Counted from the first letter of the stretch, positions 1 through 50,361 are shown. The stretch is 50,361 bases of DNA from a virus (IMGVR_UViG_3300046823_000218:1-50361); one strand, 5' to 3'. The notes: a model not told the origin generated them from the letters alone. Numbers and translations are program-made.

Positions 1-306
1 GCCTTCCTGAACGCCTGGCGGCGTGCCTGCGGCTCCTTCCCCAGGCTCGCCTGGCGCCCCATCGCCTTCCTGAACGCCTGGCGGCGTGCCTGCGGCTCCT
101 TCCCCAGGCTCGCCTGGCGCCCCATCGCCTTCCTGAACGCCTGGCGGCGTGCCTGCGGCTCCTTCCCTAGGCTCGCCTGGCGCCCCATCGCCTTCCTGGC
201 CTTCCTGAGGCTCGCCTGGCGCCCCATCGCCTTCCTGGCCTTCCCCAGGCTCGCCTGGCGCCCCATCGCCTTCCTGGCCTTCCCCAGGCTCGCCTGGCGC
301 CCCGGC
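1..306 (-). repeat. Coding tandem-repeat array, left part: 3 x 63-bp units (1-189) followed by 3 x 39-bp derivative units (190-306)
   Basis: Direct reading. The unit gccttcctgaacgcctggcggcgtgcctgcggctccttccccaggctcgcctggcgccccatc is repeated head to tail (third copy carries a ccctagg variant), then shortened 39-bp derivatives follow. All units are multiples of 3 and stop-free on the minus strand (DGAPGEPGEGAAGTPPGVQEG / DGAPGEPGEGQEG). Confidence 0.95.
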
Positions 307-978
307 TGGTTGCTGCATGGTGCGTTCCATTGCGACCAGCTCTTGCGCCAGTCTCAGAACCGCCATGGTGCTGCGGCACTTAGGCAAGCCGCGCAACGCG
401 TAGTCCACAAGCCGCTTGACGTCCGGCGACAAGGACCCTGGCAGCATGCGGGCCGTTGGCACGTCATAGTCGTTCTGCAACCGGCCCAGGATGCAGACCA
501 CATAGGGCGCGTCGGCAACCTTGGCTCCGATCACGCGCCCGACCTTGGCGCTTTCCATGACCGCCTCAAAATGTTTCCGGTCACACAATGACGCCAGCAG
601 GTTTCGCAGGTTAGGGAAGGCGCCGTTCCGGATTTCCGTGCGCTCGATGCGCACGTCTTCCATCGCGTTGACCCAATGGCGCACGCGCGGTCCCAGTGCA
701 ACCGCGCGGCGCCAGTCGTTCCAATCCGTGTGCAGCACGTGGCAGCACTCGTGCGCGATGTAGGCTACCAGTCGGTCCGCCTCGGCGCGTGTGATCTGGC
801 TGTCGGCAGGAAGGCTCGGCATGTTCAGCGTCACGCGCGGGAATTGCCACGAGACGCTAGCAGTGGAACCACCATTGCACGTGGTCAGCACTTGCCAGGC
901 GCCTTTTACGCTCGCACGTCGTGCGAGTATCTTCATTGCGGTTTCCGAAGCGGCCGCAACGGTTTCAAAGTAGAGCAT
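1..978 (-). CDS. N-terminal part of an HExxH (zincin-like) / acidic-repeat / vWA protein. The ORF runs off the left edge and continues in frame at 50361..49100.
   Basis: ATG at 976-978, 13 nt after the stop of the upstream AAA+ gene, with GAGGA overlapping that stop. My translation MLYFETVAAASETAMKILARR...LVAYIAHECCHVLHTDW...MERTMQQPAGAPGEPGEGQEG is stop-free down to position 1. It is absent from the supplied ORF track because no stop is reached inside the window. HECCH lies at 739-753. Confidence 0.8.
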   Translation of the reverse strand, partial: MLYFETVAAASETAMKILARRASVKGAWQVLTTCNGGSTASVSWQFPRVTLNMPSLPADSQITRAEADRLVAYIAHECCHVLHTDWNDWRRAVALGPRVRHWVNAMEDVRIERTEIRNGAFPNLRNLLASLCDRKHFEAVMESAKVGRVIGAKVADAPYVVCILGRLQNDYDVPTARMLPGSLSPDVKRLVDYALRGLPKCRSTMAVLRLAQELVAMERTMQQPAGAPGEPGEGQEGDGAPGEPGEGQEGDGAPGEPQEGQEGDGAPGEPREGAAGTPPGVQEGDGAPGEPGEGAAGTPPGVQEGDGAPGEPGEGAAGTPPGVQEG

Positions 979-991
979 GGGCGTCTTGTCC

Positions 992-2527
992 TCAGTTCTG
1001 GAATTGTGATGCAGCGTCGCGTCCCGCGGCTGTGGCGTTGGTCAACGCCGGGTCCGGGTTCGCATCCGTCGTGACATCGACCGGGCTGTTATTCAGCGCT
1101 GCCGCAACCTGCGTCTTGTCATAGGCTAACAGACACTGTTGACGCAGCGTTTCGACGTCCTGTTCGCTGGCGCAATTCAGGACTGCGGCATGGAACGCGT
1201 CTTCAGCGTCAATGCCATCAGTCAGCAATTCCGCCCAGGACAGCAGCCGGCGTAGTCCGATGCCGGCGGTCAATTGCTGCCCCTCGGCCGCAGCGCGTGT
1301 GGTGGCCGCGGCACTTATCAGCAGTTCTGCCAACGCCGGCGTGCAACCGGTATAGGAAACCAAAATGTCCCGCTCTTGATCGGCCGGCATGAAATCAAAG
1401 CGGACGCGCACGCCAAAGCGATCCAAAAACGCTGCGTTCAACCGGTTGGTGTCGGTATAACCGCGCCGCGATCCCCCGCCCGTGCCGTTGGTGTTGTCGC
1501 ACGAGATAAACACAACGCCCTCGGCAACCTTCACGCGCCGGCCGGTTTCCGCAATGAACAGCACGCGGTTGGCCAGCACGTTCTGCAAGACGAACAAGGC
1601 GCCAGGACGCGCGACGCTCGGTTCATCGATGCAGATCACGCAACCGGGTGTCTGGATCGCGCGCGTCAACTGGCCATCCTGCCAGGCGACTGAACCATCC
1701 GCGGCTGGGACCGTCATGCCTACCAGCGTGGGACCGTCCGTCGTGCTGTCGCATGAAATCAACGCGAACGGCCGGCCGGTCCGCGCCGCTAATTGCTGGC
1801 TCCATTCCGTCTTGCCCGTTCCGGCCGCGCCGAACAGCAGCACGTTCCGCTTGCGCGCAACCTGCGTCAGCGCGATCGCGGTTGCCGGCTGCGGCCAGAC
1901 ATACCGGGGGTTCAACCCCGGAGTGTCAGGATGCGCGCCGTCCCATAGCTTCGTGGTCCGCTGTCCCAGCGCACCCTTCACGCCAAACAGCTGGCGCCAG
2001 GTTTCGTCTTTCCCCGTGCACTTGGCTTGGCGGACCGATGGCGCTGCACCCTTGGTCCCGCCCGATGCCGGGACTTCAACCGGGACTTCGATCCGCACCT
2101 CGACCGGCGGCTTGTTCGCTTGCGTGACCAGTTCGCGCAACCTGGCGTCAAGAGCGCCAAAGCCGCCCGAGACGATCAAGCCGCGGACCGCGGCAACCTC
2201 GGCTTCGATCTTATCCGTGGCCAGGTTCCCGGCCGGGTCCTCGTCCTCGTCTTCGTCCTCGGCCTTAGCTACGGCCGCATTGATGGTCCTGGTGATGCCA
2301 GGGTCGGAGTTTTCATCGCCTTCGATGGGGATATTTATCGACGTGGATGCCGCGGTGCCCATGATGGCGTCAGCGTCGATCCCCAGCGCTTGTGCGATCT
2401 GCACCAGGCGACCAAGGCGCAATTCCGAGACTTGTTCGCCGTTCAGAACGCGTCCGGCGTCAGGATGCGCGCGGACCGCGGCACGCAACGCGTTTCGGCG
2501 CATGGCCGATGGTGGCAAGGTATTCAT
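992..2527 (-). CDS. AAA+ ATPase, CobS/MoxR-like (AAA_5 type)
   Basis: Part of ORF 992..2905. The preferred start is ATG 2525-2527 (MNTLPPSAMRR), preceded by GGAAAG. Walker A is LLFGAAGTGKT and Walker B is CVICIDEP. The segment NRLNAAFLDRFGVRVRFDF is typical of CobS/MoxR. The longer upstream extension would cross the divergent control region. Confidence 0.85.
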   Translation of the reverse strand: MNTLPPSAMRRNALRAAVRAHPDAGRVLNGEQVSELRLGRLVQIAQALGIDADAIMGTAASTSINIPIEGDENSDPGITRTINAAVAKAEDEDEDEDPAGNLATDKIEAEVAAVRGLIVSGGFGALDARLRELVTQANKPPVEVRIEVPVEVPASGGTKGAAPSVRQAKCTGKDETWRQLFGVKGALGQRTTKLWDGAHPDTPGLNPRYVWPQPATAIALTQVARKRNVLLFGAAGTGKTEWSQQLAARTGRPFALISCDSTTDGPTLVGMTVPAADGSVAWQDGQLTRAIQTPGCVICIDEPSVARPGALFVLQNVLANRVLFIAETGRRVKVAEGVVFISCDNTNGTGGGSRRGYTDTNRLNAAFLDRFGVRVRFDFMPADQERDILVSYTGCTPALAELLISAAATTRAAAEGQQLTAGIGLRRLLSWAELLTDGIDAEDAFHAAVLNCASEQDVETLRQQCLLAYDKTQVAAALNNSPVDVTTDANPDPALTNATAAGRDAASQFQN

Positions 2528-2614
2528 TTTGGCGTCTTTCCATGTTGTGACAGTGTAGGCCCCGCCGTCGTGACAGCAACGACGGGACACAACAAATAGT
2601 AGGGTTGACACAAC
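2528..2614. promoter_or_regulatory. Divergent control region between the AAA+/vWA operon and the late operon
   Basis: 87-bp gap between divergent starts. Three copies of the heptamer are present (TGTTGTGAC at 2543-2551, GACACAACA at 2586-2594 and 2607-2615). There is also a 7-bp stem hairpin CCGTCGT-gacagca-ACGACGG (2565-2585). No sigma70 hexamers were confidently assigned. Confidence 0.5.
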
Positions 2615-3151
2615 ATGCCAAGGGTAAAGCGGCAGTCCGCCACAAATAATCCTGCCGTTCAGGACCGCATGGCGAACGTGCGAGCGAAGGCGCGTCGCTG
2701 CGTTTCGTGTGGGCATTTTGCGCGTTCTGGGTCCCGGTTCTGCATGTGGCACGATCCGGAGGCGAGGACAGCCGGCGGGATAAGCAAACAAGGCGTTGTC
2801 CCGGGCGGCAGGATAAGCAAACAGGGCGTTGTCCCGGGCGGTCCCGGACCGCAGGACATGCGGAACGGACATGGGATGGGTCTGCAAGGTCAGCCGGCTG
2901 GTCAACCCTCAGGTTATGACGTACGCTCAACCCTCGCCGCCATAGCATCGGACCCCGAAGCGAACGCTAACGCTAGGACAGCGGCGGCGAGAACATTGGC
3001 GGAGCTGGACGGGCTGCTCGGCCGTCATAGCGCCGCGCCTGAACGGACCGCGGACCGCCTGCTCTCGTCCCTGTCCCGGGTGGAGCTGGCGCGCGAACTG
3101 GCCAGGCTTAGGGCCTCTTGTGCCGAAGACAAGGCACCAAATGGCGGCTAA
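2615..3151 (+). CDS. Putative small terminase / DNA-binding packaging protein (basic N-terminus with Cys cluster)
   Basis: ORF track 178 aa. First gene of the late operon. Contains CVSCGHFARSGSRFCMWH (zinc-ribbon-like) and ANARTAAARTLAELDGLLG, which resembles the RxAAAxxLLDRG helix I recall from small-terminase families. The function is tentative. Confidence 0.7.
   Translation: MPRVKRQSATNNPAVQDRMANVRAKARRCVSCGHFARSGSRFCMWHDPEARTAGGISKQGVVPGGRISKQGVVPGGPGPQDMRNGHGMGLQGQPAGQPSGYDVRSTLAAIASDPEANANARTAAARTLAELDGLLGRHSAAPERTADRLLSSLSRVELARELARLRASCAEDKAPNGG
2778..2841 (+). repeat. In-frame 33-bp tandem duplication inside the TerS-like gene
   Basis: ggataagcaaacaaggcgttgtcccgggcgg (2778-2808) and ggataagcaaacagggcgttgtcccgggcgg (2811-2841). 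They encode GISKQGVVPGG / RISKQGVVPGG. Confidence 0.9.
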
Positions 3152-3190
3152 CCCCTTGGTCTTGCTACATGTCCGCTGTCCTTGCCAAGG

Positions 3191-3256
3191 CCCGGTCCCG
3201 GTCCCAGGACCAGGACCGCCCGGGCGCGCGCGGTCCCGGGACCAGGACCGCCCGGG
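3191..3256. repeat. Intergenic cluster of seven GGWCC sites (GGTCC x2, GGACC x2, GGTCC, GGACC x2), including a duplicated GGACCAGGACCGCCCGGG block
   Basis: Direct reading of cccggtcccggtcccaggaccaggaccgcccgggcgcgcgcggtcccgggaccaggaccgcccggg. It lies 40 nt after the TerS-like stop. ORFs 3118..3363 and 3120..3389 over it look spurious. Confidence 0.85.
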
Positions 3257-3361
3257 CCGACCGCCCCCCTCGGGGGGTCGCGGCCGCCGGCGTTATTCTC
3301 ATGATTGGCGCACCGACCACTCCGTTAGTTTTCAAACTTTCATTCCGCTTACCGAACGCCT

Positions 3362-3419
3362 AAACTCAAATCTCGTTACACTTTCTTGAGCAGCCAAACT
3401 CAAATTTCGTTACACTTTC
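3362..3419 (+). repeat. Two 24-bp direct repeats (23/24 identical, 34-bp period) in an AT-rich stretch upstream of the first tail-fibre gene
   Basis: aaactcaaatctcgttacactttc (3362-3385) and aaactcaaatttcgttacactttc (3396-3419). Confidence 0.9.
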
Positions 3420-3464
3420 CGCACGCCCAGGATATTTTGTTGCGCCAAAATCTGTGTCGGTTTA

Positions 3465-5999
3465 GTGTCGCGTCTCCGCTGGGGAGACACCGCCTTGGCA
3501 GCCGATGGCTCGTCGCGTCCTCGGGCACCGATGCCGGCCCCGCCGGACCGGGCGTTTTCGTTCACCGACTGGCAGGTCAGCAACCCCACGGCGCCCCCGC
3601 CGGGGGATAAGCTCGACGCCGAGTTCGACCGCACCAACCAAGCCGTAGAGGACCAGCTCACCTGGACCTCTGCCAGCCTGAACTCGGACGGCTCCATCCG
3701 CGACGGAATTATCGGCGAAAACAACCTGGTCCCGGGGCTTTTTGACGATCTGTCTGAGGGTGTGATCGACGACGTGCAGCCGCTCGTGGATACCGCTACC
3801 AATGCGGCGGGTGCGGCTCAGGCGTCCGCCAGCGCCGCCGCGGCCTCGGCGACCTCGGCGGCTGGCGCCAACACCGCGGCCCAGGGCGCCAATACGGCGG
3901 CGCAGGGAGCCGCGGGCGACGCCCGTCTCTCCGCGGCGAACGCCCAGGGTGCCAACACCGCGGCGCAGGGCGCGGCGGGTGACGCCCGCCTCTCCGTGGC
4001 AAACGCCCAGGGCGCCTCGGCTCTGGCGCAGGACTATGCCGACGTGACGCAGGCATGGGCCGAGCACATGCCGGACACCATCCCGCCGAACATCCTGGCG
4101 GTCATGGGGATCAGCGGCGACCATTGGTCCAGCCGCTGGTGGGCCAACCGTGCGGCGCAGATCGCGCTCACCACCGGCGGGCTGGTCACCGCTTCGCCCG
4201 CCCCGCCCGCCAACCCCTTCGATGGCCAGCTCTGGTGGGACAGCGTCGGCACGCAGCTCTACATCTACTACAACGACGGCAACTCGAAGCAGTGGGTCGC
4301 GGCGAGCAATTATGGCGCCGGCGCCGCCGGCCTCGGCGACGCGCCCAGCGACGGAACCGCCTATGGGCGGTTGAATGCGGCGTGGTCGCAGGTGCTGGTT
4401 CCTGCGGTTGGAACATTCACCGATGGCGGCGGCAGCTATCCTGCGCAGACGGTAACGCCGCTGCGGATGAGCGGCATGGCGTTCATCGGCAGCGGTTGGG
4501 ACAGCCAATACACGACATATGCCCAGAGCCCTGGCACCGGCACATGGATCAAGCGGACGTGGGAGGGGCTGCGCTATCTGGAGAAGGGCACGCAGCTGCG
4601 TGTGGGGTCCGCGATTGGCGGGGCCGCCGCGCTGTTCTTCTCAAGGCAAAGCGACAACGGGCAACTCTCGACCGATCCGTCAGTGATCGGCACCGTCAGC
4701 TTTTCCTACAACGACGTCGTCGGAACGCGCGGCAGCTGGGGTCATTATCTTGAAGCGCACCGAATTGCCGGGGCGGGTCCCGCGATTGGGCAGGAGATTG
4801 AGGTCGTTACTCACGGTGACGACGTTGTGCCTGTTGGTCCCTATGGCTACGTCGGCGGCGGCACGCCGCGCACGCTGGCATTTGGTTTGGGCATTGGCTG
4901 CGGCGGCGACAGCGGCACGGCTGGCACAGGGCCAACCTATAATGCCGGCAATCCAATCTATATCACGCCTAACCCTAACCGCTTCAAACTTGGCATCACT
5001 TTCCTTTATACTTCGCTGGTGCGAGATAACCCCGCAGACGAAACATCTCCAGCGCATGCTTTGCTAATGGGTAAGGGGCATCAGATCGAGTGGCACCGCG
5101 ATGTCAGCGGTAATCCTTCCTCGTATATCCGGTCTGACAATGACGGCACGATCAAAACGGCGCTGCTCTTCAAAGCCGATGGCCTGTATCTCACGTCTGC
5201 ACCGGACGAAGTGCCTATAGCTGGCTTTTTTCCGGTTGCTAATGCAGTAAACTATTTGCGCCACACAGGCGCGGCTGCTGGGTTCAATCCGCAGTTACAG
5301 TGTGGTGGTTCGGACCCGAATATTTCCCTCAACCTGGCGGGGAAGGGCACCGGCGGCGTGCGTCTGCTCGATGGCACCCCGACAGCCCAGGTTGTTGTTA
5401 GCACGGCTGGCACGGCGATCCAGAAGGTGGGTTTCAACGGCACGGCCCCGATCGTCAAGCCAACAATTACCGGCGCCCGCGGCGGTGTCCTTAACACGCC
5501 CGTGGCGGCGGTGGGCAACGGTGCCGACACGACCGAGGACACGTTGCAGACGTTCAGCGTGCCCGCGAATACGTTGCGCAATGTCGGTGATCGGATACGG
5601 ATCGTCGCCGGCGGAACGATGGCGGCGTCAACGGATAGCCGCATAGCGCGTATCCGGTTGGGCGCGCTGATCTATGCGCAGGTAACTGCTACGATCGCAT
5701 CAACAACAACATGGCGACTGGAATGCGATGTCGTCAAAACCGCTAACAATGCGCAGATGCGAACTGGTGTTGGATTGGCGACAAGTGCAGGCGTCACGAC
5801 GATAAACGGCGCGGACACGCTGACGGATACAGGCGCGCTCTCGCTGACTGTGACGGGCCAAAACACTACCAATTCGGTCGCTAGCTCGGTGGTCTGCAAC
5901 TACCTGCTGGCCGAGGCGCTGCCGATCACGCCGCCGATGTCATCGCTGACGGCAGCGCTGGCTGCGTATGGGCTGGTCACCGACAGCACGAGTGCATAG
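3465..5999 (+). CDS. Tail fibre protein
   Basis: ORF track 844 aa (GTG 3465; an in-frame ATG at 3531, MPAPPDRAFSFTDWQ, is an equally plausible start). The N-terminus is FxDxxxxxxxPPxGxKLDAEFD. There is an alanine-rich in-frame repeat (ANAQGANTAAQGAAGDARLS x2). The motif GQLWWDSVGTQLYIYYNDGNSKQWV is common in proteobacterial phage fibres. Confidence 0.85.
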   Translation: MSRLRWGDTALAADGSSRPRAPMPAPPDRAFSFTDWQVSNPTAPPPGDKLDAEFDRTNQAVEDQLTWTSASLNSDGSIRDGIIGENNLVPGLFDDLSEGVIDDVQPLVDTATNAAGAAQASASAAAASATSAAGANTAAQGANTAAQGAAGDARLSAANAQGANTAAQGAAGDARLSVANAQGASALAQDYADVTQAWAEHMPDTIPPNILAVMGISGDHWSSRWWANRAAQIALTTGGLVTASPAPPANPFDGQLWWDSVGTQLYIYYNDGNSKQWVAASNYGAGAAGLGDAPSDGTAYGRLNAAWSQVLVPAVGTFTDGGGSYPAQTVTPLRMSGMAFIGSGWDSQYTTYAQSPGTGTWIKRTWEGLRYLEKGTQLRVGSAIGGAAALFFSRQSDNGQLSTDPSVIGTVSFSYNDVVGTRGSWGHYLEAHRIAGAGPAIGQEIEVVTHGDDVVPVGPYGYVGGGTPRTLAFGLGIGCGGDSGTAGTGPTYNAGNPIYITPNPNRFKLGITFLYTSLVRDNPADETSPAHALLMGKGHQIEWHRDVSGNPSSYIRSDNDGTIKTALLFKADGLYLTSAPDEVPIAGFFPVANAVNYLRHTGAAAGFNPQLQCGGSDPNISLNLAGKGTGGVRLLDGTPTAQVVVSTAGTAIQKVGFNGTAPIVKPTITGARGGVLNTPVAAVGNGADTTEDTLQTFSVPANTLRNVGDRIRIVAGGTMAASTDSRIARIRLGALIYAQVTATIASTTTWRLECDVVKTANNAQMRTGVGLATSAGVTTINGADTLTDTGALSLTVTGQNTTNSVASSVVCNYLLAEALPITPPMSSLTAALAAYGLVTDSTSA

Positions 6000-6001
6000 C
6001 C

Positions 6002-9000
6002 ATGCCCTTCGATTTCCCCAGCGCGCCCACCGGCGGCCAGACCGTCACCACCCCCGGCGGAACTTACACCTGGGACGGTACCAAATGGGTTGCCTCCCCC
6101 GGCACCGGCGGCAGCGGGGGAGGCGGCACGCCTTCGTCCGCGCCCCCATTGATGAATAGCGTCGCCGATCCCGGCGCCGCCACCACTTATTCCCGCGGCG
6201 ATCACGTCCATCCGTCCGACGCGTCACGCATGCCGACGACGCCGCAGACGTTCGACAGCTACCTCTACGGCATCGCCCCGGACTTCAAGGTCGTCGCCGG
6301 TCCCGTCTCCTGGACCGGCACGCAGGTCACCGTCCAGGGCGCGACCTTCACCGCCGCCGACGTCAACAAGACCATCATCATGCCCGCCGGCGCCGATGCC
6401 GCCGGCAACAGCGTCCCGGCTCTCGTCAGGATCGTCAGCCCCGGCTTCACTAGCAACTGCACGGTCGACACGACCGCCGCGCATGCTTTCACCGGGGCCA
6501 GCCTCACCGTCACCACGGACGGCGGCCCCACCATCAACGCCTTCGGCGCCGGCGGCTCAGCGGTCTGGGACCTCCTCACCATGCAGGGCGGCGGCGTGAT
6601 CCGCCCGGCCCAGTTCGTCGTCCGGCAAATCCGGCCCACGAGCGCCGCAATCGTCTCGCCAGGCGGCGGCGGACCGCCCGGTGCCACCGTCTACCTGCGC
6701 GGCACCACCGGCTACGGGCGGCGGTCTCTCTGGCAGGGCGTCACCGACGCCAATGGCGTCTTGACCGGCCCCTTGACCCTCGTCGACCCGGGCGCGCTCT
6801 ACGAAAACCCCCGTGATCCTACCGCGGAGCCGCTTGCCGCCGATCAGCGTGCGCTCACGCTGCCGGGCAACTGGGCCGCCGGCGGCCCTGGTCCCTGGAC
6901 CATCACCCTCGATCCTAACCTTGTCGCCGCAGGCCCCGTGAAGCTGCTGCGCCTTGGCATGAGTGTCGCCGGCACCGGTATCCCCGGCGGCACGGTTATC
7001 ACTGCTATCTCGCCCGATTTCTATACGGTCACTCTCTCCAAAGCCCCCATCGTCGCCGGCCCCGGCAAGGTGACCTACACCGAGAACAAGGTGACCGCCT
7101 CGTTCCGCGCCACCTGGGCCAACAACAGCACCACGCTGACGGCCACGGCGGCGCTGCCGTCCTGGGTGGTCGCCGATCCCACCGCCGGCACGTTGATCGA
7201 GGGCGTGGGCCTTGTCGGCGCGGCGGACCCGCGGCAGCCGGACGCCGCCAACACCCGCATCGTTGCGCTGGATGTGACCCGCACGATCGTCACCATCTCG
7301 CAGCCCACCACGCAGGGCGTGACGCAGCCGGCTTTCGTCACAATGAACCCGTTCCTCAACGGGGTCACAGCGTCGCTCAACTTCGTGCCGCACACGCTCT
7401 ACCCCACCGACACCGGCGTTTACTCGTCCTGGCCGACATTCCCCGCCAGCGTCACCGGCGGCGCAAATCCCGGCATCACCATCACGCCGCCATCCCGCAC
7501 GCTACAAGTCGGTTATGGCACTGATAACGGCACCGCGTTTGAAAGCTGGGCCTCCGACGTGCGCGCGGCCTGCGCGGCCCAGCAGTCGCTGCCCAGCGGC
7601 CAGGGCATCTCGGTCGGCATCGAAGTGCTGCTACGCCCCGGCAATTATCTGAGCACGCGCGGCATCAATTTCGTCAACTGCCCCGGGCAGTCCGTGACGT
7701 TCAACATGGCTGGGGCGTCGATCCACTCGTGCGCGGCGGATAAGGTCGCGCTCGACATGCGCAAGGGGTCTTTCTGGGTTCTTGAGAACCCCACCATCTT
7801 CGGCGATCAGTATTTCCCGCCGCGCGTTGGCCTCGCCGTTGGCCGTATCGATACGACGCTATCGCATGGCGTGCACGTCCGCTCCTACAACGGTGGCGGC
7901 TTCTTCAACATGGCCGGGCTGTCGGTGCAGAACTGCGAAGGCGCGACCTTCACCGCGCCTAACGTCAGCAACCGCAAGGCTCCATCACGACCGGCGCCGC
8001 CGCCGATCCCGCCTGTCCCCGGCACGCGTGCCACCGGCACGTTCACCATCCTCGTTGACGCGTGGAGCCACTGGGACATCCCCTGCGAGTTCGCGTCGGT
8101 CACCATGGCGTCGAACGCGTTCCAAAGCTTTGACGGCCTGCGGATGATCACTGCATCCGCTTACGGTCAGTGCGGCGCGATCCCGTGGGCGATCAGCCCC
8201 GGCAACCAACTTCAAATAATCAACGGCTACTCCGCTTCATGGGGTGGCGCGGGCGTTCTCTATTTCGGCGATGGCGGCGTGCCTTGCGAAATTGAGATGC
8301 ACATGGAGGTGGCGGACGGACCTAACAACACCGATCAGACCGGCGGTCTGCAAGATGCGTTTCTGCTGGCGGGCATCAGCAACCCGATCATGCAGGCTGA
8401 TTTCTCGTTCCGTGAGTATGCGACAGATGCCCGCAACAGCATCATCGCCTGCGACACGCAAGCGATGTTCGGGCCGCGCGCCAACTCGCTGCAAACGAAC
8501 CTTGCCAACATCCGTGTCCTCAGCTTCCCCGTCAACGATGCACAGGTCTGGGATCGTTTTCCAACGCTTACAGTTGGCGGCCTGGCGACCATTACTGAGT
8601 GGGGCGGGGACGTCGTCCTCGGCGGCGTTAATTACGCCAGCAACGGGCATCTTCAGAACGTGCCTGCCAGCCGCTTCGGGTTGACCTGGCGCGGTGAAAC
8701 CAAGCACGATCTGCACCTTCTCGGGCAGGGTCATTTCAACGACCTTGTCATCGACAACAGCGCGATTTTTCAGGACGGCATCGTCATCAATGATGGCGGC
8801 GCGATCGTCAATGGCGGGCTGATCATCGGGCAGAGCGGCCTCCCGACCTTCGGTTCCTGGACGCAAAATCAGCTCCTCGTCGGCCAGACCGGCAGCATCT
8901 CCGCGCCGTCGACTGCCGTGCCGATCCTCTCCTTCGCTGGTCCTGGGAACACCGTGATCGACGGCGGCGGACCGATCACCGACAGCCGCTTCATCGTGCA

Positions 9001-10336
9001 TAACCGGGGCACGATCGATGTCGAGGGCTACGAGGGCGCAGGCCCCCTCCTGTTCCGTGTCAATGGCGCTATAACCGCCACGGGCACGGTCACTCTGGCC
9101 GCCGATCCGACCGCTTCCCTCCAAGCCGCTACCAAGCAGTATGTCGACAACCACGCTCCCCTCGGCGGGCCTTATCTGCCGACTGGCGGCGGCACGATGA
9201 CAGGGGCGCTGACTTACACGGCAACCGGCGGCACGACCGCACGCTCGGCGCAGGACCGCGCCGGCGACTTGACGAGCATCATGGATTTCGGTGGGCATCT
9301 CAACGGCACGATCAGCGATACCGCTGCGATCGGCGCGGCGCTCGCTGTCCTCGGCACCAACGAGCCGCTGGTCATGCCCCCCGGCGCGGCGTCGGTCGTG
9401 TGGGGCAGCGTGCAGAATACGACGCCTACCTCACCGGTTCTGTTCAAGGTCGACGGCGTGCTGTCCGGCGGCGTTGCCATGCTTCAGGCATATAACCGCG
9501 TCGGCAAAGGCGATCTGTTTGAAAACTTTTCCAACGGAACGAAGTTTCTCGCGGTTCGTTCCGGAAAAGCTGATAGCGGTGGCGTGCTGAGACTTGAGCA
9601 TAATCAAGTGCTCGGCGGCGGCACGGGCGGCTTCGTTAATAACATCCTCAACATCGTAGCGCAGGACAACACCGCCGCCGTCACGTCGATGGCTGGCATC
9701 AACGTAACGATGGACAGCTACAGCACCCAAGCCGGCTGGCCGCAGAATGTCGCTGGCTCTTTTACTTTGAATAAGCACGGTAAAGCCTGGACTGCTGCGG
9801 TTCATATAACTAACCAAGACGATCAGAACCTGCCCTCTTCAACGGGAGGGGTCGTGGTTGGAACGGAGATGGCCGTTCGTGTCAACGGCGTTGACGATGC
9901 GTTCAACGGCAGTGTTATCGGCAGCGCTGGTTCTCGTATGGGGATGCACATCTCCCTTTACGAATGGGGCGGCACCGGAGCCGTGCTACCGGGCGAAATT
10001 AGCTGGGGCATTCTGTTCGACGGATCGGTAAATTGCATCACCAAATCCATTCTCGGCGTCAGCACCGATATGAACACGTATCAGGTGCTGGATGCGCGCG
10101 GCGCGTTGCCGCCCTCGGGCTACACCTCGCCGGTTGCTGCGGTGCGCATGAGCAGCGGTCAGATTGTTGATTTCAACGGCGGCACGGCACTCAACAGCGC
10201 AGCGGGGGCTTACCTGCAATACCGCACCGCAACCGGGCGCTTGTATTATGTGGTCGCGGGCGTCGACCAGTGGAGCGTAGATGCCAGCGGCAATGTGCGA
10301 GCGCGCGGCACAGTAACCGGGAGCACCACGCCATGA
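6002..10336 (+). CDS. Large tail fibre/tailspike with two putative beta-helix (depolymerase-like) modules
   Basis: ORF track 1444 aa. N-terminus is PTGGQTVTTPGGTYTWDGTKWV plus YSRGDHVHP, a classic fibre N-terminal motif. The central region has beta-helix-like repeats. An ATKQYVD collar lies near aa 1043. It is followed by IMDFGGHLNGTISDTAAIGAAL, which resembles a pectate-lyase-type N-cap. Confidence 0.85.
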   Translation: MPFDFPSAPTGGQTVTTPGGTYTWDGTKWVASPGTGGSGGGGTPSSAPPLMNSVADPGAATTYSRGDHVHPSDASRMPTTPQTFDSYLYGIAPDFKVVAGPVSWTGTQVTVQGATFTAADVNKTIIMPAGADAAGNSVPALVRIVSPGFTSNCTVDTTAAHAFTGASLTVTTDGGPTINAFGAGGSAVWDLLTMQGGGVIRPAQFVVRQIRPTSAAIVSPGGGGPPGATVYLRGTTGYGRRSLWQGVTDANGVLTGPLTLVDPGALYENPRDPTAEPLAADQRALTLPGNWAAGGPGPWTITLDPNLVAAGPVKLLRLGMSVAGTGIPGGTVITAISPDFYTVTLSKAPIVAGPGKVTYTENKVTASFRATWANNSTTLTATAALPSWVVADPTAGTLIEGVGLVGAADPRQPDAANTRIVALDVTRTIVTISQPTTQGVTQPAFVTMNPFLNGVTASLNFVPHTLYPTDTGVYSSWPTFPASVTGGANPGITITPPSRTLQVGYGTDNGTAFESWASDVRAACAAQQSLPSGQGISVGIEVLLRPGNYLSTRGINFVNCPGQSVTFNMAGASIHSCAADKVALDMRKGSFWVLENPTIFGDQYFPPRVGLAVGRIDTTLSHGVHVRSYNGGGFFNMAGLSVQNCEGATFTAPNVSNRKAPSRPAPPPIPPVPGTRATGTFTILVDAWSHWDIPCEFASVTMASNAFQSFDGLRMITASAYGQCGAIPWAISPGNQLQIINGYSASWGGAGVLYFGDGGVPCEIEMHMEVADGPNNTDQTGGLQDAFLLAGISNPIMQADFSFREYATDARNSIIACDTQAMFGPRANSLQTNLANIRVLSFPVNDAQVWDRFPTLTVGGLATITEWGGDVVLGGVNYASNGHLQNVPASRFGLTWRGETKHDLHLLGQGHFNDLVIDNSAIFQDGIVINDGGAIVNGGLIIGQSGLPTFGSWTQNQLLVGQTGSISAPSTAVPILSFAGPGNTVIDGGGPITDSRFIVHNRGTIDVEGYEGAGPLLFRVNGAITATGTVTLAADPTASLQAATKQYVDNHAPLGGPYLPTGGGTMTGALTYTATGGTTARSAQDRAGDLTSIMDFGGHLNGTISDTAAIGAALAVLGTNEPLVMPPGAASVVWGSVQNTTPTSPVLFKVDGVLSGGVAMLQAYNRVGKGDLFENFSNGTKFLAVRSGKADSGGVLRLEHNQVLGGGTGGFVNNILNIVAQDNTAAVTSMAGINVTMDSYSTQAGWPQNVAGSFTLNKHGKAWTAAVHITNQDDQNLPSSTGGVVVGTEMAVRVNGVDDAFNGSVIGSAGSRMGMHISLYEWGGTGAVLPGEISWGILFDGSVNCITKSILGVSTDMNTYQVLDARGALPPSGYTSPVAAVRMSSGQIVDFNGGTALNSAAGAYLQYRTATGRLYYVVAGVDQWSVDASGNVRARGTVTGSTTP

Positions 10337-10361
10337 CATCGATTTCGGGAGTGTAAACACT

Positions 10362-10823
10362 ATGCCTTTTGATCCGGAGACCGTCTCTTTCCTGCCCAGT
10401 TACAGTGTGGGTCTCCTTCCGCCTGCTGATGGAAGTTTGCAACCGGGCATGCTGCACCTTGAGCTGGCGGCGACGCCCCGGCTCTGGGTCGGCACTCTCA
10501 CGGAACTGGGTTTCGAGGGGAATGTCGCCGTGCTGGTGGCGACGCCGCCGCTCATGGCGCCTCTCAACCGCACCGCGCCCTATGTGTTTCAGGACGGGGA
10601 CACGCTCACCTGCACCATGGGCACCTGGACGGGGGAGCCGACCGCCTACTCCTACGAGTGGACGCTCGACGGGGCCCCCGCAGGGGACGACAGTGATGTT
10701 CTCACCGTCACCACGGCCGAGGTCGGGCAGGTCGCCGTCTGCGTGGTGACGGCGACCAACGACACTGGGACCACCGAAGGCCCGCCGTCCAACGAAGTCA
10801 CGGTCGCGGAGATTGCGCCATGA
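10362..10823 (+). CDS. Small tail-associated protein with an Ig-like repeat
   Basis: ORF track 153 aa. The segment GDTLTCTMGTWTGEPTAYSYEWTLDGAPAGDDSDVLTVTTAEVGQVAVCVVTATNDTG matches the widespread G-x-W-x-G-x-P-x-YxYxW ... VTAxN Ig-like pattern. Confidence 0.75.
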   Translation: MPFDPETVSFLPSYSVGLLPPADGSLQPGMLHLELAATPRLWVGTLTELGFEGNVAVLVATPPLMAPLNRTAPYVFQDGDTLTCTMGTWTGEPTAYSYEWTLDGAPAGDDSDVLTVTTAEVGQVAVCVVTATNDTGTTEGPPSNEVTVAEIAP

Positions 10824-12544
10824 GCCGCGCGCAGCACGGCAGTGACGGGCGGTTCGTTGCCGCTCGCGAAGAAGCCGAACCCACGCCCCTGGCTGCGCCG
10901 CCTCAGCCGATGGGGACCGGCGTGATGCGGGTGCAGCAGAACCGCTACGACAACTGGGTCGCCTCCGGCGGCACGCCGGAAATCTATGGTCCTGTGGTGC
11001 TGCCGCCACGGGCGACCGAGCTGACCTTCCCTGTCCCGGTGGCCGTCAACTCGGACGGCTATGCGCGTCCGGGACCGTTCACGTCGCGCAGCGGGATCAA
11101 CCCCGCGGTGCACCTGACCAAATACACGGCCGCAGCCTCGCCGGTGGTTGTGATTGTCGGCGACAGCACGTCCACGCCCACGCCAAACCCGCTCACTCCG
11201 CTTGACGTTCTCTGGTTTCAGCTTCAGCGCCGGATGCGCGAGGACAACCCGACGAAGACGCACAGCTTCCAGAATTTCGCGATGGGCGGCAGTGCGATGT
11301 CCACCTTCATCGCGCCGCAGGTGCTTGCCGACGGCGTGCTGACGATCCCCACCTGGTATACCAACAACACCGTGGCTTGGTGGACCTACGTTCAGGCGGT
11401 GATGCCGGACCTGCTTTTCTTCAACTTTGGCGTCAACGACAGCTTCAACCTCAACGCCGTTACGCTGGCCAGCGCGCTGTCCATCGTCAACGGCTGGGGC
11501 ACTGTCCCGCCCGCGTGGCAGGCCAACACCGCCTACACGCGCAACGCTGTCATCCTCGATAGCAACGGCAGGATGCAGGTTATGGCAGCTAACTCTGGCA
11601 CGTCCGGAGCAAGCCCGCCGACGTGGCAGACATCGCTGCACTCGCCGACCGTGGACAACACCGCGACGTGGTTGGTGATGAGCGCCGGCACCTACACGGC
11701 GAAGAAGCCAGATATTGTGCTGATCACCAACAAATCCGCCAACCCATCGGCAGGGGGAAACTTCAGCGCAACGAAATATCAGATCGGACGCCTGGCCGCA
11801 GCTTCATTGCAGCGGACGGCAGCGCTCAGCGGCTACAATTTCGGCGTCTCCGGTCTGCCGCGGCTTGGTCTCATCGACATCGGCCGCGTGTTCCAACAGG
11901 CGGTCAACGGCATTGATCCCGGTGAGCAGGTGATGTCGCAAAGCATCACGGCGCCGGTCACGGTCACCACGTTCCCGTACATACTGCCGCAGACGGACGG
12001 TGACCTGGACATGACCTGGACCATTCCAGGTTCAAACCAGACCGTGTTGACGTGCACGTTCTATCTCGCCGCGGCGGACGGGTCGACCACGTCCCAGCAA
12101 TACACCAACTACATTAACATCGGCACCAGCACGGGCACGAACATCTTCGCCAACTACTTCCCGGCGTTGGGCTCACCTGCCATGCCAGGGGCGAACCAGG
12201 GTTTTGGCTGGGTGTCGACGGGCAACAACACGGTGCAGATCACCCTTCGGGGCACGCACCTTTACGTCCTGGTCAACGGCTTCGTGCTCTATAACGCTCT
12301 GGTGCCGCGCTACCGCAGCCCGTGCACGCCGTCGATGAACATTCTCAGCCCTCCCGGCGGTTTTAGTCCCATTCTCGTTAGTTACAATCTCTCAACGATG
12401 CAGAAAACCACGCCGTCGCTGACGGCGACCGAGACTTACGGTTCGCTCAATGGCCCGACCGGGGGCAACGGCATCAACCACGATGCCTCGGCGGCAATCG
12501 CTGGTATCGATGCGCGTGTGCTCGACGCCACCCAGTTTGCGTAA
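10820..12544 (+). CDS. Tail protein with SGNH/GDSL-hydrolase (esterase/deacetylase) motifs
   Basis: ORF track 574 aa; the ATG overlaps the upstream stop (ATGA). SGNH block I is VVIVGDSTS, block II is FAMGGS, and block III is FNFGVNDS. Confidence 0.8.
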   Translation: MSRAQHGSDGRFVAAREEAEPTPLAAPPQPMGTGVMRVQQNRYDNWVASGGTPEIYGPVVLPPRATELTFPVPVAVNSDGYARPGPFTSRSGINPAVHLTKYTAAASPVVVIVGDSTSTPTPNPLTPLDVLWFQLQRRMREDNPTKTHSFQNFAMGGSAMSTFIAPQVLADGVLTIPTWYTNNTVAWWTYVQAVMPDLLFFNFGVNDSFNLNAVTLASALSIVNGWGTVPPAWQANTAYTRNAVILDSNGRMQVMAANSGTSGASPPTWQTSLHSPTVDNTATWLVMSAGTYTAKKPDIVLITNKSANPSAGGNFSATKYQIGRLAAASLQRTAALSGYNFGVSGLPRLGLIDIGRVFQQAVNGIDPGEQVMSQSITAPVTVTTFPYILPQTDGDLDMTWTIPGSNQTVLTCTFYLAAADGSTTSQQYTNYINIGTSTGTNIFANYFPALGSPAMPGANQGFGWVSTGNNTVQITLRGTHLYVLVNGFVLYNALVPRYRSPCTPSMNILSPPGGFSPILVSYNLSTMQKTTPSLTATETYGSLNGPTGGNGINHDASAAIAGIDARVLDATQFA

Positions 12545-14109
12545 TGACCCCCACCGAACACCGCTACGAACTGGTCCTGAAACGGTTGATCGCGATCCTC
12601 GACGCCGAGCAGCAGATGCTTGCCTTCACGCGGCTGATGAAGCCGACCGCCGAGGACCCCGACGACCCCGACTGCACGCGCTATGACGCGCAGAAGTTCC
12701 ACAAGGTCATCTGCGCGGCGCTGGAGGAGCTGGAAGCCGGGCGCATCCGCCGGCTGATCATCAGCCTCCCACCGCGGCACGGCAAGACCGAGCTGGCGTC
12801 GAAGATGTTCCCGGCCTGGTTTGCCGGCCGCAACCCCCATCTATCCCTCATATTCGGCACCTATAACGAGAAATACTCCCAGGATGTGGGCCGTGCGGTC
12901 CGGGACATCATGTTGTCCCCGCCCTACGCCCAGGTCTTCCCGGACACGGTCCTGAAAGACGACAGCCTCGCTTCGGATCGGCTTCAGACCACCAAAGGGG
13001 GCATCCTCGCCTTCGTGGGCCGCGGCGGGACCACCACCGGGCGTGGCGGCGATGTGCTCATCGTCGATGACCCGCTCAAGGACCGTCAGGAAGCGGATAG
13101 CCCGACCATCCGGGACACGCTTTGGACCTGGTTTACGCAGGTCATCGGCTCCCGCCTTATGGACGAGACCGGCCGCATCATGCTCATCCAGACCCGGTGG
13201 CACCAGGACGACCTGGTCGGCCGGCTTACCGATCCGCTCAACAGTTTCTACGATGTCGACGAAGCCAAACAGTGGCACATCATCGATCTGCCGGCGCTCG
13301 CCATGGACCAGGACAATGATCCGCTCAGGCGCAAGCTGGGTGAACCGCTCTGGCCCACGCGGTTTGGCGAGGATTTCCTGGTCTCGATGCAGCGGCGCGA
13401 CGCGCGCGGCTTCTCGGCGCTCTACCAGGGGCGGCCTTCCCCCGCGGGCGGCACTTTCTTCAGTGCCGCCTGGCTGAAGACCTACAAGCCTGCCGATCTG
13501 CCCACCAACTTGCGCTTCTACGGCGCGTCAGACCATGCCGTCAGCCTCAAGCAATACGCGGACAAGACCTGCCTGCTGGTCGTCGGCATCGATGCCGAGG
13601 ACAACATCTACATCGTGCAGGACCTGCTGTGGCGGTCGGTGACGGCGGAACAGTGCGTCGAGGCGATGCTGCGCATGATGCGCGGCTACAAGCCGATGTT
13701 CTGGTGGGCCGAGCGCAGCATGATTTCCAAGTCGATCGGTCCCTTCCTGCGCAAGCGGATGTTGGAGACAAAAACCTATTGTTCGGTGATCGAGATGCAG
13801 CCGATTGCCGACAAGCAGACGCGCGCGCAGTCGATCCAAGGCCGCATGGCCATGGGCAAAGTGATCTTCCCGGAGCGGGCAGCGTGGTGGCCCGCGGCGC
13901 GGGACCAGCTCCTCAAGTTTCCGCACGACCAGCACGACGATTTCGTCGACGCCCTCGCCTATGTCGGCCTCGGCCTGACGTTGCAAGTCGGCGCCGCGCG
14001 GCCGGAGAAGAAGACCGTCGAGACCGAGGGCACGTTCGGCTTCATGCTGGCGCAGCGCACCCAGGCCGAGAAATCCGTGCGTCTCGGCTTCGGGACCGGA
14101 GGCTGGTAA
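12544..14109 (+). CDS. terL: Terminase large subunit
   Basis: ORF track 521 aa. Walker A-like LPPRHGKTE, Walker B VLIVDDPLKD, and IQTRWHQDDLVGRL. The C-terminal nuclease part contains DDFVDAL. It sits immediately upstream of the portal gene. Confidence 0.9.
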   Translation: MTPTEHRYELVLKRLIAILDAEQQMLAFTRLMKPTAEDPDDPDCTRYDAQKFHKVICAALEELEAGRIRRLIISLPPRHGKTELASKMFPAWFAGRNPHLSLIFGTYNEKYSQDVGRAVRDIMLSPPYAQVFPDTVLKDDSLASDRLQTTKGGILAFVGRGGTTTGRGGDVLIVDDPLKDRQEADSPTIRDTLWTWFTQVIGSRLMDETGRIMLIQTRWHQDDLVGRLTDPLNSFYDVDEAKQWHIIDLPALAMDQDNDPLRRKLGEPLWPTRFGEDFLVSMQRRDARGFSALYQGRPSPAGGTFFSAAWLKTYKPADLPTNLRFYGASDHAVSLKQYADKTCLLVVGIDAEDNIYIVQDLLWRSVTAEQCVEAMLRMMRGYKPMFWWAERSMISKSIGPFLRKRMLETKTYCSVIEMQPIADKQTRAQSIQGRMAMGKVIFPERAAWWPAARDQLLKFPHDQHDDFVDALAYVGLGLTLQVGAARPEKKTVETEGTFGFMLAQRTQAEKSVRLGFGTGGW

Positions 14110-14291
14110 TGCAGGAAAAAGCAATTGTTTACTTCGTGGTGGCGTGGCTCGCCTGCTGGTTGGTCGACCTCATCGTGATCGTCGCCCGCGGACCCCTATT
14201 GATCGATCCGATCCTCAAGTTTGCGATCGTGCTGTTGTGCTTGCTCGTCGTCCTGGTCGGCCTTTCCCGTCACGGATGGTTGCTCACGTAA
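14109..14291 (+). CDS. Small membrane protein (2 predicted TM helices)
   Basis: ATG 14109 overlaps the TerL stop (TAATG), and its stop abuts the portal ATG. Sequence is MQEKAIVYFVVAWLACWLVDLIVIVARGPLLIDPILKFAIVLLCLLVVLVGLSRHGWLLT. Confidence 0.6.
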   Translation: MQEKAIVYFVVAWLACWLVDLIVIVARGPLLIDPILKFAIVLLCLLVVLVGLSRHGWLLT

Positions 14292-16646: not shown

Positions 16647-16658
16647 TAGGAGAAAATC

Positions 16659-17150
16659 ATGGCAACTAAAGTTCAAGTTACTGGTGGCGTGCTCGAGGTT
16701 GAGGCGATCATGGGGCCCACCCATCCGGACGCCGGTCTGCCGATCAAGCCGGCGCGCCCAGGCCACGATCTGCCAAGCTCTGACGCGCATCCCTGGGTGC
16801 CTGGGCATCTGCCCGACCCCGGACCGCCGGGTGTCTTCCCGCCATTGACGCCCAGCCATCCGATCCAGCCGGCGCCTCCGGGGACGCTGCCAGGGACAAT
16901 CTGGCCGCCGGTTGGTCACCCGAGCCATCCTCTGCCTGGCAGTCCCGGACACCCGTCCACTGGGCCGGTGCCTCCCGGCACAGTGACGCCGCCGATCGCC
17001 ACGCCGCCTCCCGTGGCCGGCACGCCGATCCCGCCTAAGACTTACTGGTTGGTCGCGGGCATCCCCGGTGTCGGCTGGCGTTACGTCGCGATCGATCCAT
17101 CACTCGTGGTCGGTGGCGGCCCGGCGCCGACGCCCGCACCGAAAGGCTAA
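16659..17150 (+). CDS. Proline/histidine-rich protein of unknown function
   Basis: ORF track 163 aa with a good RBS (taGGAGaaaatcATG). Contains repeated (G/S)HP and PPG motifs. The C-terminus is the ordered-looking KTYWLVAGIPGVGWRYVAIDPS. Confidence 0.65.
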   Translation: MATKVQVTGGVLEVEAIMGPTHPDAGLPIKPARPGHDLPSSDAHPWVPGHLPDPGPPGVFPPLTPSHPIQPAPPGTLPGTIWPPVGHPSHPLPGSPGHPSTGPVPPGTVTPPIATPPPVAGTPIPPKTYWLVAGIPGVGWRYVAIDPSLVVGGGPAPTPAPKG

Positions 17151-17156
17151 CCTACG

Positions 17157-17336: not shown

Positions 17337-17365
17337 CCGGCTGCATTAGACGAAATATCAACAGG

Positions 17366-49099: not shown

Positions 49100-50361
49100 C
49101 TAGTCGGCGCCACGTTGGTTCGCGTCTTCCAGCATGGCGGTCAGGACCCGCATCCCCTCGCGCGCCAGGTGCGCCAGGTCTGTGATGTTTTCGGAGTAAC
49201 CGGGCGGGAACGCGTCCACCACTTCCGGGCACGCCATGCCCAGGCCCACGGTTTCCACGCCCATGTCGGCGGCGATATTGCACGCGGCCGTGACTGCCCT
49301 GGCGCCCAGCTCACAAGCGCCATCGGTCAGGACCAGCAGGATGCGGCGGGTCGCGTTGGCTTCCCGCAGATACTCGGCCGCGCCAATGATCGATTGCGAC
49401 AGGGGCGTGTAAGAATGTCCGTACGCATGGCTGATAATGGCGGCGCTTTCGGCAACGCTCACGGTCCAGTCTTTCAGCAGCCAAATATCGGCATGGTGCA
49501 TCTTGGCGCGGACGTTTTCGACAGGCGTGTGGAACGCTGCCACTGCTACCTTGGCATTGGCGCTTTCCGCGGCTTTGGCGACAGCCCATGCCGTGGCCTT
49601 GGCCATGTCCATGCGGGTTCCCTTGCCGGCGTTAAAGTCATCTACGCCAGCGTTCATGGAACCGGACCCGTCGATCAAGACCAGCAACGCGGTATCGATC
49701 CCAGGCGTATCGTCCCGCTTGGAAAACACGTCCAGGGCCCCGGCGCGCATGCGGACCAACGCGCGGCGGTCCAGCCGGCCGCTGGTTTCATGGTGCGTGC
49801 GGCGGTGCACTTCATCGCTCACAAGCAACCGTGAAACCTGCCCGTGCAAGACGCTGTTCGCGGTCAGCAGCGCGTTCAGCCGTTCTGCGGCGGCTTGATT
49901 GCGGTCCGATGGCCGTGGGTCCTGCCGTCCGATCCTGGCGCGCGTCGTGTTCAGCACGTGTTCGGCGCTGCCGCTCAGGTGGGTTTTGAGATTATCGATG
50001 CCGGCGCGCCTGGCGATTTGGCGGACCATGTCTTCCAGCGTGTTGGCGTTGGGGTCCAGCTCGGGACCGTGACCGGCTTCATCCTCAGGCGTCCCAGGCG
50101 CCCCCTCGCCTTCCTCTGGCGCCTCATCGCCTTCCTCTGGCGCCCCATCGCCTTCCTGAACGCCTGGCGGCGTGCCTGCGGCTCCTTCCCCAGGCTCGCC
50201 TGGCGCCCCATCGCCTTCCTGAACGCCTGGCGGCGTGCCTGCGGCTCCTTCCCTAGGCTCGCCTGGCGCCCCATCGCCTTCCTGGCCTTCCTGAGGCTCG
50301 CCTGGCGCCCCATCGCCTTCCTGAACGCCTGGCGGCGTGCCTGCGGCTCCTTCCCCAGGCT
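49100..50361 (-). CDS. C-terminal part of the HExxH / acidic-repeat / vWA protein (continues from 978..1 through the window junction)
   Basis: ORF track lists 49100..50029. The same frame stays open upstream through the repeats (…GVQEGDGAPEEGDEAPEEGEGAPGTPEDEAGHGPELDPNANTLEDMVRQ…) to the window edge. vWA MIDAS LVLIDGSGSM has its DxSxS at 49658-49672. Confidence 0.85.
   Translation of the reverse strand, partial: PGEGAAGTPPGVQEGDGAPGEPQEGQEGDGAPGEPREGAAGTPPGVQEGDGAPGEPGEGAAGTPPGVQEGDGAPEEGDEAPEEGEGAPGTPEDEAGHGPELDPNANTLEDMVRQIARRAGIDNLKTHLSGSAEHVLNTTRARIGRQDPRPSDRNQAAAERLNALLTANSVLHGQVSRLLVSDEVHRRTHHETSGRLDRRALVRMRAGALDVFSKRDDTPGIDTALLVLIDGSGSMNAGVDDFNAGKGTRMDMAKATAWAVAKAAESANAKVAVAAFHTPVENVRAKMHHADIWLLKDWTVSVAESAAIISHAYGHSYTPLSQSIIGAAEYLREANATRRILLVLTDGACELGARAVTAACNIAADMGVETVGLGMACPEVVDAFPPGYSENITDLAHLAREGMRVLTAMLEDANQRGAD
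50108..50361 (-). repeat. Coding tandem-repeat array, right part: 2 x 21 bp, 2 x 63 bp, 1 x 39 bp, then 47 bp of a 63-bp unit identical to window positions 1-47
   Basis: Direct reading. The units are 50108-50128, 50129-50149, 50150-50212, 50213-50275 (ccctagg variant), 50276-50314 and 50315-50361. Confidence 0.9.

Follow-up and report, generated by a model that had tools for sequence, protein, structure and literature searches.

Several two-gene systems that pair an AAA+ ATPase with a vWA-domain protein have been described, and the general mechanism of MoxR-vWA pairs has been set out (PMC7159879). In the CobS/CobT system, the shaft of CobT inserts into the nucleotide-bound CobS ring (10.64898/2026.07.21.739949). 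Viral CobST has been proposed by Liu et al. to hijack host CobN to raise cobalamin (PMC8651126). Group 2.2 jumbo phages carry a MoxR AAA+ ATPase beside a vWA protein with a metallopeptidase joined to its N-terminus, for which chaperone action, virion assembly and proteolytic processing have been suggested (PMC7824862). A pair of this general kind is encoded in IMGVR_UViG_3300046823_000218, a viral stretch of 50,361 nucleotides (nt) that was analysed at its full length and is called the window below. Its two minus-strand genes code for an AAA+ ATPase, the CobS/MoxR-type motor (992..2527; 511 amino acids, aa), and for a vWA partner, here called the adaptor, which begins at 978 and continues across the window ends. 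The pair is read here, with moderate confidence, as a phage CobS/CobT-type motor and adaptor (MoxR-clade AAA+ plus vWA) whose CobT_N-type domain remains an intact zincin metallopeptidase.

This reading is centred on the N-terminal domain of the adaptor (aa 1-222; 313..978, minus strand), which is CobT_N-like and zincin-like in its AlphaFold2 (AF2) model. The model (predicted local distance difference test score, pLDDT, 93) consists of helix a1, a three-stranded sheet and then seven helices. Nearly the same topology, with eight helices after the sheet, is found in the crystal structure of CobT_N, which has been likened to peptidase M48C (10.64898/2026.07.21.739949). The initial annotation had raised the question of whether H-E-x-x-H sits on a zincin helix together with a third ligand. 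The sequence HECCH (739..753, minus strand), in which H76-E77-x-x-H80 forms HExxH, is predicted to lie on helix 64-83. The segment NAMEDVRIE (643..669, minus strand), with N104, E107, D108, R110 and E112, lies on helix 97-118 of the model, a candidate 'glutamate helix' that may provide an acidic third ligand. An HExxH helix followed by a long helix with N..ED...E is how gluzincin-type peptidases are arranged, and the Glu of a zincin HExxH is the catalytic general base rather than a metal ligand.

These residues are kept throughout the phage-type family. HExxH is invariant in all three alignments of adaptor homologues and is present in 190 of 212 family proteins, the remainder being N-terminally truncated fragments or carrying HExxxH (n=3). 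Among 80 IMG/VR viral loci, which were retrieved via the motif downstream of HExxH, 79 have HExxH and the other one has HExxxH. Across 49 diverse family members, which share only 23-38% identity with the window protein, H76, E77, H80, T84, N104, E107, D108 and E112 do not vary. Over hundreds of homologues, the residues of HExxH, of NxxED...E and of the MIDAS (metal ion-dependent adhesion site) of the vWA domain are invariant or nearly so. As the Glu is a base and not a ligand, the invariance of E77 argues for hydrolysis, beyond mere metal binding. The N-terminal CobT_N-type domain is probably a zincin metallopeptidase with an intact motif, as predicted from sequence and model, and the peptidase output that the initial annotation had suggested is plausible, given the invariant catalytic Glu.

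In contrast, none of 120 canonical CobT sequences, which were collected by means of the solved Brucella protein, has HExxH. The equivalent segment of these proteins reads RACHDxRIH or QARHNPRIH, and NAMEDVRIE pairs with FDAVEQARVEA of CobT in the profile alignment. The earlier view that the partner differs from canonical CobT is thus upheld. A canonical CobT N-domain without metal-binding geometry at HECCH had been named as the finding that would speak against a peptidase; the domain proved to be of CobT_N type, but its metal-binding and catalytic motif is intact.

The same contrast bears on a different explanation, namely that the two proteins are genuine viral cobaltochelatase subunits that dock on host CobN and boost cobalamin during infection, with HExxH kept as a structural element or a relic. 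The cobalamin could, for example, supply a B12-dependent ribonucleotide reductase. Both proteins are homologous to CobS and CobT, and the tripartite architecture of CobT, with its acidic linker and MIDAS, is shared. A chelatase role has been proposed for viral cobST clusters (PMC8651126) and is the basis of the annotation of Microcystis phage Mae-Yong1326-1. Also, R64 and D68 of the adaptor, in the segment TRAEAD (775..792, minus strand), are invariant in 30 close homologues, a conservation like that of the CobS-binding residues of CobT. The CobT sequence at this position is TRGLGD, and its R76 and D80 form salt bridges to the small domain of CobS (10.64898/2026.07.21.739949); judged by sequence, R64 and D68 would correspond to these two residues. 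However, canonical CobT functions without HExxH, whereas the viral family strictly keeps the signature, including the Glu that is not a ligand. The ATPase reaches only 64.9 bits with the CobS equivalog of NCBIfam (TIGR01650), far under the cut-off of 558.55, and carries a 170-aa extension that is not found in CobS. The window adaptor rises above threshold for neither Pfam CobT nor Pfam CobT_C. A CobN gene is not apparent in the window, in which the 1444-aa open reading frame (ORF) has no Pfam match and the 2169-aa ORF has only a virion structural PHROG match; this absence is weak evidence against a chelatase. Taken with the motif, these points make viral cobaltochelatase subunits an unlikely explanation of the pair.

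Several results weigh against an intact zincin of CobT_N type. No significant solved zincin was found by Foldseek when the N-domain model was compared with the PDB (best E 0.26); on the other side, most of the weak matches were to zinc peptidases (MATCAP, M61, minigluzincins, M1 aminopeptidases, ZMPSTE24 and Spartan). By sequence, the N-domain alone matches canonical CobT_N weakly (CobT_N hidden Markov model, E 0.77), and hhalign of the narrow phage N-domain profile with a Rhizobiales CobT_N profile gave a collinear, weak alignment (E 0.032, probability 1.6%). A 24-sequence N-domain profile found no true match in the PDB, only spurious ones to armadillo repeats. In addition, Liu et al. regard 'peptidase' as a mistaken annotation of viral CobT and prefer to see a cobaltochelatase function in it (PMC8651126). 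As a single sequence, the N-domain gave only chance antibody matches in the PDB. CobT chains were absent among the 50 Foldseek PDB matches listed for the model, possibly because the crystal structure is not yet in the PDB copy or because the N-domain is poorly modelled in the cryo-electron microscopy entries. In favour of the reading, the model of the domain matched viral 'CobT', cobalamin biosynthesis and VWFA proteins in the BFVD database (E 1.6e-8 to 6e-4; template modelling score, TM, normalized to the query, 0.55-0.79), among them 'CobT' of uncultured phages and proteins of the haloarchaeal viruses that Liu et al. discuss. The PHROGs matched by the adaptor were phrog_1576 (unknown function) and phrog_459, 'peptidase', over aa 74-114.

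The adaptor has 69 close homologues, many of them on contigs of 44-54 kb, and an exhaustive profile search with the N-domain returned 975 clusters at E<=0.001, in which most proteins are 550-715 aa long. In Pfam, the window adaptor has no match to CobT (PF06213), and CobT_C (PF11775) is sub-threshold (15 bits; cut-off 21). Some homologues pass marginally in Pfam (for example P0019, 27.4 against 26.1), and among the 49 diverse relatives CobT_C is matched in 26 and CobT in 4 (best E 1.7e-10). The profile built from these 49 members aligns with Brucella CobT (9uka_G) in one collinear stretch, positions 95-609 against residues 94-622, at E 3.2e-49; it also matches NorD, at about 1e-15. The link of the N-domain to CobT is drawn because of this broader profile, the Pfam matches in relatives and the shared topology. 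The adaptor is a divergent CobT homologue and not a protein of the DUF2201 type.

DUF2201_N and DUF2201 join a putative metallopeptidase domain to a vWA-like domain. The initial annotation had assigned the partner to this type and had considered a conflict system, and a corresponding explanation would be a DUF2201_N/DUF2201-type HExxH-vWA protein which acts with its MoxR partner as an accessory conflict module in anti-defence or host takeover. The architecture is analogous, with an HExxH domain and a vWA domain paired with a MoxR ATPase; vWA-MoxR conflict systems do exist (PMC7159879), and the divergent orientation of the pair relative to the structural genes is real. However, no Pfam match to DUF2201_N or DUF2201 (PF13203/PF09967) was found in the window protein (E<=1), in 30 close homologues (E<=0.01) or in 49 distant ones (E<=0.001), that is, in none of 79 homologues, and the family leads instead to CobT. 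PADLOC lends the conflict assignment no support: it reported only IetA (20.9 bits, at the level of the P-loop) over ATPase aa 218-261, the Walker A region, and nothing for the adaptor. The pair is also fixed and syntenic in its lineage and in many viral contigs, unlike a variable moron. An accessory conflict module is therefore, of all the explanations considered, the least probable.

The ATPase is assigned by sequence to the MoxR/CobS/midasin clade of AAA+ proteins, in line with the AAA_5/CobS/MoxR type first proposed for it. Pfam AAA_5 matches aa 228-371 (63.7 bits; cut-off 22), and CbbQ_C, the C-terminal small domain of CbbQ/NirQ/NorQ, matches aa 385-458 (41.3 bits; cut-off 20.6). The Walker A and Walker B sequences reported initially are confirmed by translation: GAAGTGKT (1808..1831, minus strand; aa 233-240) is nearly invariant among ATPase homologues, as are the D, E and P of ICIDEP (1619..1636, minus strand; aa 298-303). 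The protein matches phrog_249 ('porphyrin biosynthesis'), which we take to be viral CobS, at 3.4e-50, and in the PDB it matches the AAA region of midasin (8.8e-31), CobS (6.5e-19), NorQ (1.3e-17) and CbbQ (5.6e-17). Alignment to CobS begins only at aa 198. The N-terminal extension (about aa 1-170; 2018..2527, minus strand) is without counterpart in canonical CobS of 328 aa and is kept in 97 full-length homologues. In its AF2 model, aa 1-65 form a four-helix domain, predicted with confidence, which is followed by acidic disordered sequence (66-97) and by a helical hairpin (98-137). A fold search of the extension against the PDB gave nothing significant, only weak resemblance to small helical domains like the helix-turn-helix.

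Since the two proteins have NorD and NorQ among their closest solved relatives, a metal-insertion chaperone for another metalloprotein was also considered, working in the manner of NorQ/NorD or CoxD/CoxE and using HExxH...E to hold the metal for delivery. MoxR-vWA pairs commonly mature metal centres (10.64898/2026.07.21.739949; PMC7159879). However, this explanation leaves the invariance of Glu77 unaccounted for, as this residue would be the catalytic base of a zincin and not a ligand, and no candidate metalloenzyme gene lies adjacent to the pair in the window or in related loci. Metal delivery to another protein is thus quite improbable.

Beyond the N-domain, the adaptor has the three-part architecture of HExxH domain, acidic repeat and vWA domain with MIDAS that was initially proposed. 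The Gly/Pro/Glu linker, first estimated at about 170 residues, is 178 aa long in the reconstructed ORF and is net acidic, with 56 G, 33 E, 32 P, 10 D and 2 R. Its first part (aa 223-326; 1..312, minus strand) is encoded by 39- and 63-nt tandem repeats, with Tandem Repeats Finder (TRF) arrays at 1-198 and 161-303. The second part (aa 327-400; 50093..50361, minus strand) contains TRF arrays at 50097-50343, and its last 47 nt repeat window positions 1-47. The pre-vWA segment VLHGQ...DDTPG (aa 481-531; 49700..49852, minus strand), the counterpart of the CobT 'shaft', is among the most conserved blocks of the close-homologue alignment and pairs with CobT 356-415. By analogy with CobT, this segment may act as a shaft that enters the ATPase ring. 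The vWA domain with its MIDAS follows (49103..49699, minus strand; stop codon 49100-49102). Pfam VWA_2 matches adaptor aa 536-658 at 26.5 bits, near threshold. The MIDAS residues are D541-x-S-x-S in DGSGS (49658-49672), T629 in TPLS (49397-49408) and D657 in LTDG (49319-49330), all on the minus strand; the positions given initially for HECCH and DGSGS translate exactly to these sequences. The family profile alignment to the vWA domain of CobT covers its MIDAS residues D422/S424/S426 and D546.

A mechanism for the proposed motor and adaptor with intact zincin can be modelled by analogy with the solved CobST, NorQD and CbbQO systems. The ATPase would assemble as a hexameric ring, the adaptor N-domain would dock onto the small (CbbQ_C) domain of the ATPase, and the conserved pre-vWA 'shaft' would be inserted into the ring pore. 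The MIDAS face of the vWA domain would capture an acidic residue of a putative protein client, and ATP hydrolysis would pull the adaptor and remodel the client. The HExxH domain, held on a long, flexible and acidic Gly/Pro/Glu tether, would through its putative peptidase activity cleave the client or the adaptor itself. As clients, we consider a phage structural or assembly protein first and a host protein next; insertion of cobalt with a hijacked host CobN is less likely. Ten further window ORFs, scanned for a prohead protease or CobN, had no Pfam match, and since the window holds no recognisable prohead protease, there is room for a role in maturation.

The two genes occur as a fixed unit in viral genomes. 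In all 72 IMG/VR loci with enough upstream sequence, the gene directly upstream has the same orientation and is of AAA_5 type, and a vWA domain lies within 2 kb downstream in all 51 loci with enough downstream sequence. As these loci come from contigs of differing sizes and with identity down to 26%, the constant order (72/72 and 51/51) indicates that the pair is an old and obligate unit. Metagenomic contigs of 50.7 and 52.1 kb have the same synteny, divergent tail-fibre-type genes included. Fixed and syntenic both in the phage lineage and in many further viral contigs, the pair is no accessory moron, and the suggestion of an accessory module had to be given up. A scan of 185,579 species genomes found only nine distant loci (29-46% identity; betaproteobacterial, Acidimicrobiaceae and other assemblies). 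In four loci on large betaproteobacterial contigs (L007, L008, L011 and L013; adaptor about 30% identity), a related AAA gene lies about 8 kb upstream and is not adjacent; these may be prophages of differing arrangement.

The gene model of the pair follows from translation and from homologues. The two genes were described at first as adjacent, on the minus strand and 13 nt apart, and this is correct: the ATPase stop codon TGA (992-994) is followed after 13 nt by the adaptor ATG (976-978). The latter is preceded by a GAGGA Shine-Dalgarno sequence that overlaps the ATPase stop. The ORF and start of the ATPase were set by homologue alignment, and the start at 2527 is consistent with the N-termini of about 100 full-length homologues. 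The adaptor gene runs on the minus strand from 978 down through base 1, resumes at the other window end and terminates at 49100, so that its C-terminal third (49100-50361) falls outside the range 1-2527 first considered. When the window ends are joined directly, the two halves of the adaptor fall in different frames. This was resolved by an exact 47-nt identity between suffix and prefix (1-47 = 50315-50361), since dropping the overlap gives a single uninterrupted ORF of 730 aa. Given this overlap at its ends, the contig is either circularly closed or terminally redundant. The junction falls within the 63-nt tandem repeat of the adaptor gene detected by TRF, and a metagenomic copy (P0001) of 654 aa is 76 aa shorter and matches the aligned non-repeat part of the query with 100% identity; thus, the repeat number in the window, and with it the length of the adaptor linker, is uncertain. 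The practical outcome for the window is that the adaptor gene is now correctly modelled across the contig junction.

The window, about 50 kb long, is the genome of a tailed and temperate phage. In addition to the pair, it encodes a large terminase (12544-14109), portal, major head protein, tail fibre (3465-5999, plus strand), tyrosine integrase (44512-45612), primase-helicase (46118-48499), family-A DNA polymerase, exonuclease and helicase. The pair is divergent from the plus-strand block that starts at 2615 and includes the tail-fibre gene, and it is convergent with the primase gene. The ATPase gene is separated from the first ORF on the plus strand by a divergent intergenic region of 87 nt (2528..2614), and an imperfect 17-nt inverted repeat lies at 2536-2552 and 2606-2622. 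No sigma-70-like promoter was found in these 87 nt, and scans for sigma-70 promoters and terminators around both genes gave nothing exceeding the shuffled expectation. The initial annotation had suggested a control region of the pair's own and a neighbouring origin; none of the analyses made places an origin in this region. No nucleotide-level relative was found by megablast of window 1-20000 among 50,697 deposited phage records, and the single protein-level relative of the adaptor N-domain among these records is the 'CobT' of Mae-Yong1326-1. The lineage of about 50-kb temperate phages to which the window belongs is poorly sampled, and the pair is a conserved core module in it.

A few further features of the window were observed. 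The first plus-strand ORF (2615-3151; 178 aa) has no Pfam or PHROG match, starts with a zinc-ribbon-like CxxC...CxxH segment and contains a 33-nt tandem duplication (2773-2838) that encodes two copies of GGISKQGVVPG. Just upstream of the tail-fibre gene (3465) lie a GC-rich palindromic region (3193-3262) and, after it, two copies of a 24-nt direct repeat (3362-3419), AAACTCAAAT(C/T)TCGTTACACTTTC; the palindrome and the direct repeats may be a regulatory or packaging signal. A 600-nt gap (48500-49099) separates the convergent primase and adaptor genes. Within it lie an 18-nt inverted repeat without mismatches (48520-48537 and 48635-48652) and direct repeats of 32 nt (48675-48706 and 48733-48764), which might represent a terminator, an origin or an attachment site; a canonical intrinsic terminator was not detected in this gap. 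In the structural region, the plus-strand ORFs 6002-10336 (1444 aa), 10820-12544 (574 aa) and 26421-28511 (696 aa) have no PHROG or Pfam match. The virion structural protein of 2169 aa (29059-35568) has a Pro-Gly-rich tandem repeat of CCAGGA/CCAGCC near its N-terminus (29215-29295).

CobS/CobT-like pairs are widespread in tailed viruses and are generally annotated and counted in viromics as auxiliary metabolic genes for vitamin B12. The near-universal zinc-protease signature of the viral homologues, together with the peptidase-like fold of CobT_N, gives a testable ground to doubt this annotation. As the protease motif is kept in viral homologues and lost in canonical CobT, a B12 role of viral cobST becomes directly testable. 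The contrast also suggests how the chelatase adaptor may have evolved. Judged by its motifs, the pair is more probably a machine that remodels and cuts proteins than a vitamin B12 enzyme. A wider proposal, which we offer tentatively, is that viral 'CobT' proteins are active zincin proteases on an AAA+ motor ('grip and cut') and that cellular CobT is a derivative with a decayed protease site. If this were true, it would be a mistake to count viral cobS and cobT routinely among the auxiliary metabolic genes for cobalamin, and ATP-dependent phage proteases of a new class, with a phage or host target, would open to study.

Among known systems, Brucella CobS/CobT (PDB 9ujv and 9uka series) has an AAA+ ATPase that belongs to the same clade and carries a small domain of CbbQ_C type, as found here. 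Brucella CobT consists of an N-domain, a disordered acidic linker, and a shaft with vWA/MIDAS; the phage adaptor is built alike and is collinear with it. The TRxxxD residues, which in CobT contact the ATPase, are common to both. In contrast, HExxH...NxxED...E is intact in the phage adaptor, whereas CobT has RACHDxRIH...DAVEQ, and the phage linker is made of Gly/Pro/Glu tandem repeats instead of a stretch rich in D, E and S. The phage ATPase differs from CobS by its N-terminal extension and its low equivalog score. Also, CobS/CobT works with CobN, and none was recognised in the phage window. NorQ/NorD and CbbQ/CbbO are motor-adaptor pairs of the same AAA+ clade, but the adaptors NorD and CbbO are without an HExxH N-domain, and the clients of these systems, NorB and Rubisco, are not encoded in the window.

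The viral cobST clusters, including that of Mae-Yong1326-1, are two-gene units with the same gene order in tailed-virus genomes (PMC8651126; PMC9503304). Mae-Yong1326-1 also has the same local order of CobS, CobT, primase-type ATPase, integrase and repressor, although identity to its proteins is only 30% for the adaptor N-domain and 48% for the ATPase core. The viral cobST papers assign a B12 role and consider the peptidase label an error; the comparison of motifs made here argues the opposite and favours a protease over a B12 role. The MoxR and metallopeptidase-vWA pair of jumbo phages (PMC7824862), likened here by its described architecture, follows the same three-part logic, whereas the present pair belongs to a temperate phage of 50 kb. 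This architecture has thus already been described, both as viral cobST and as MoxR with a metallopeptidase-vWA protein, and the pair in the window is a new, divergent member.

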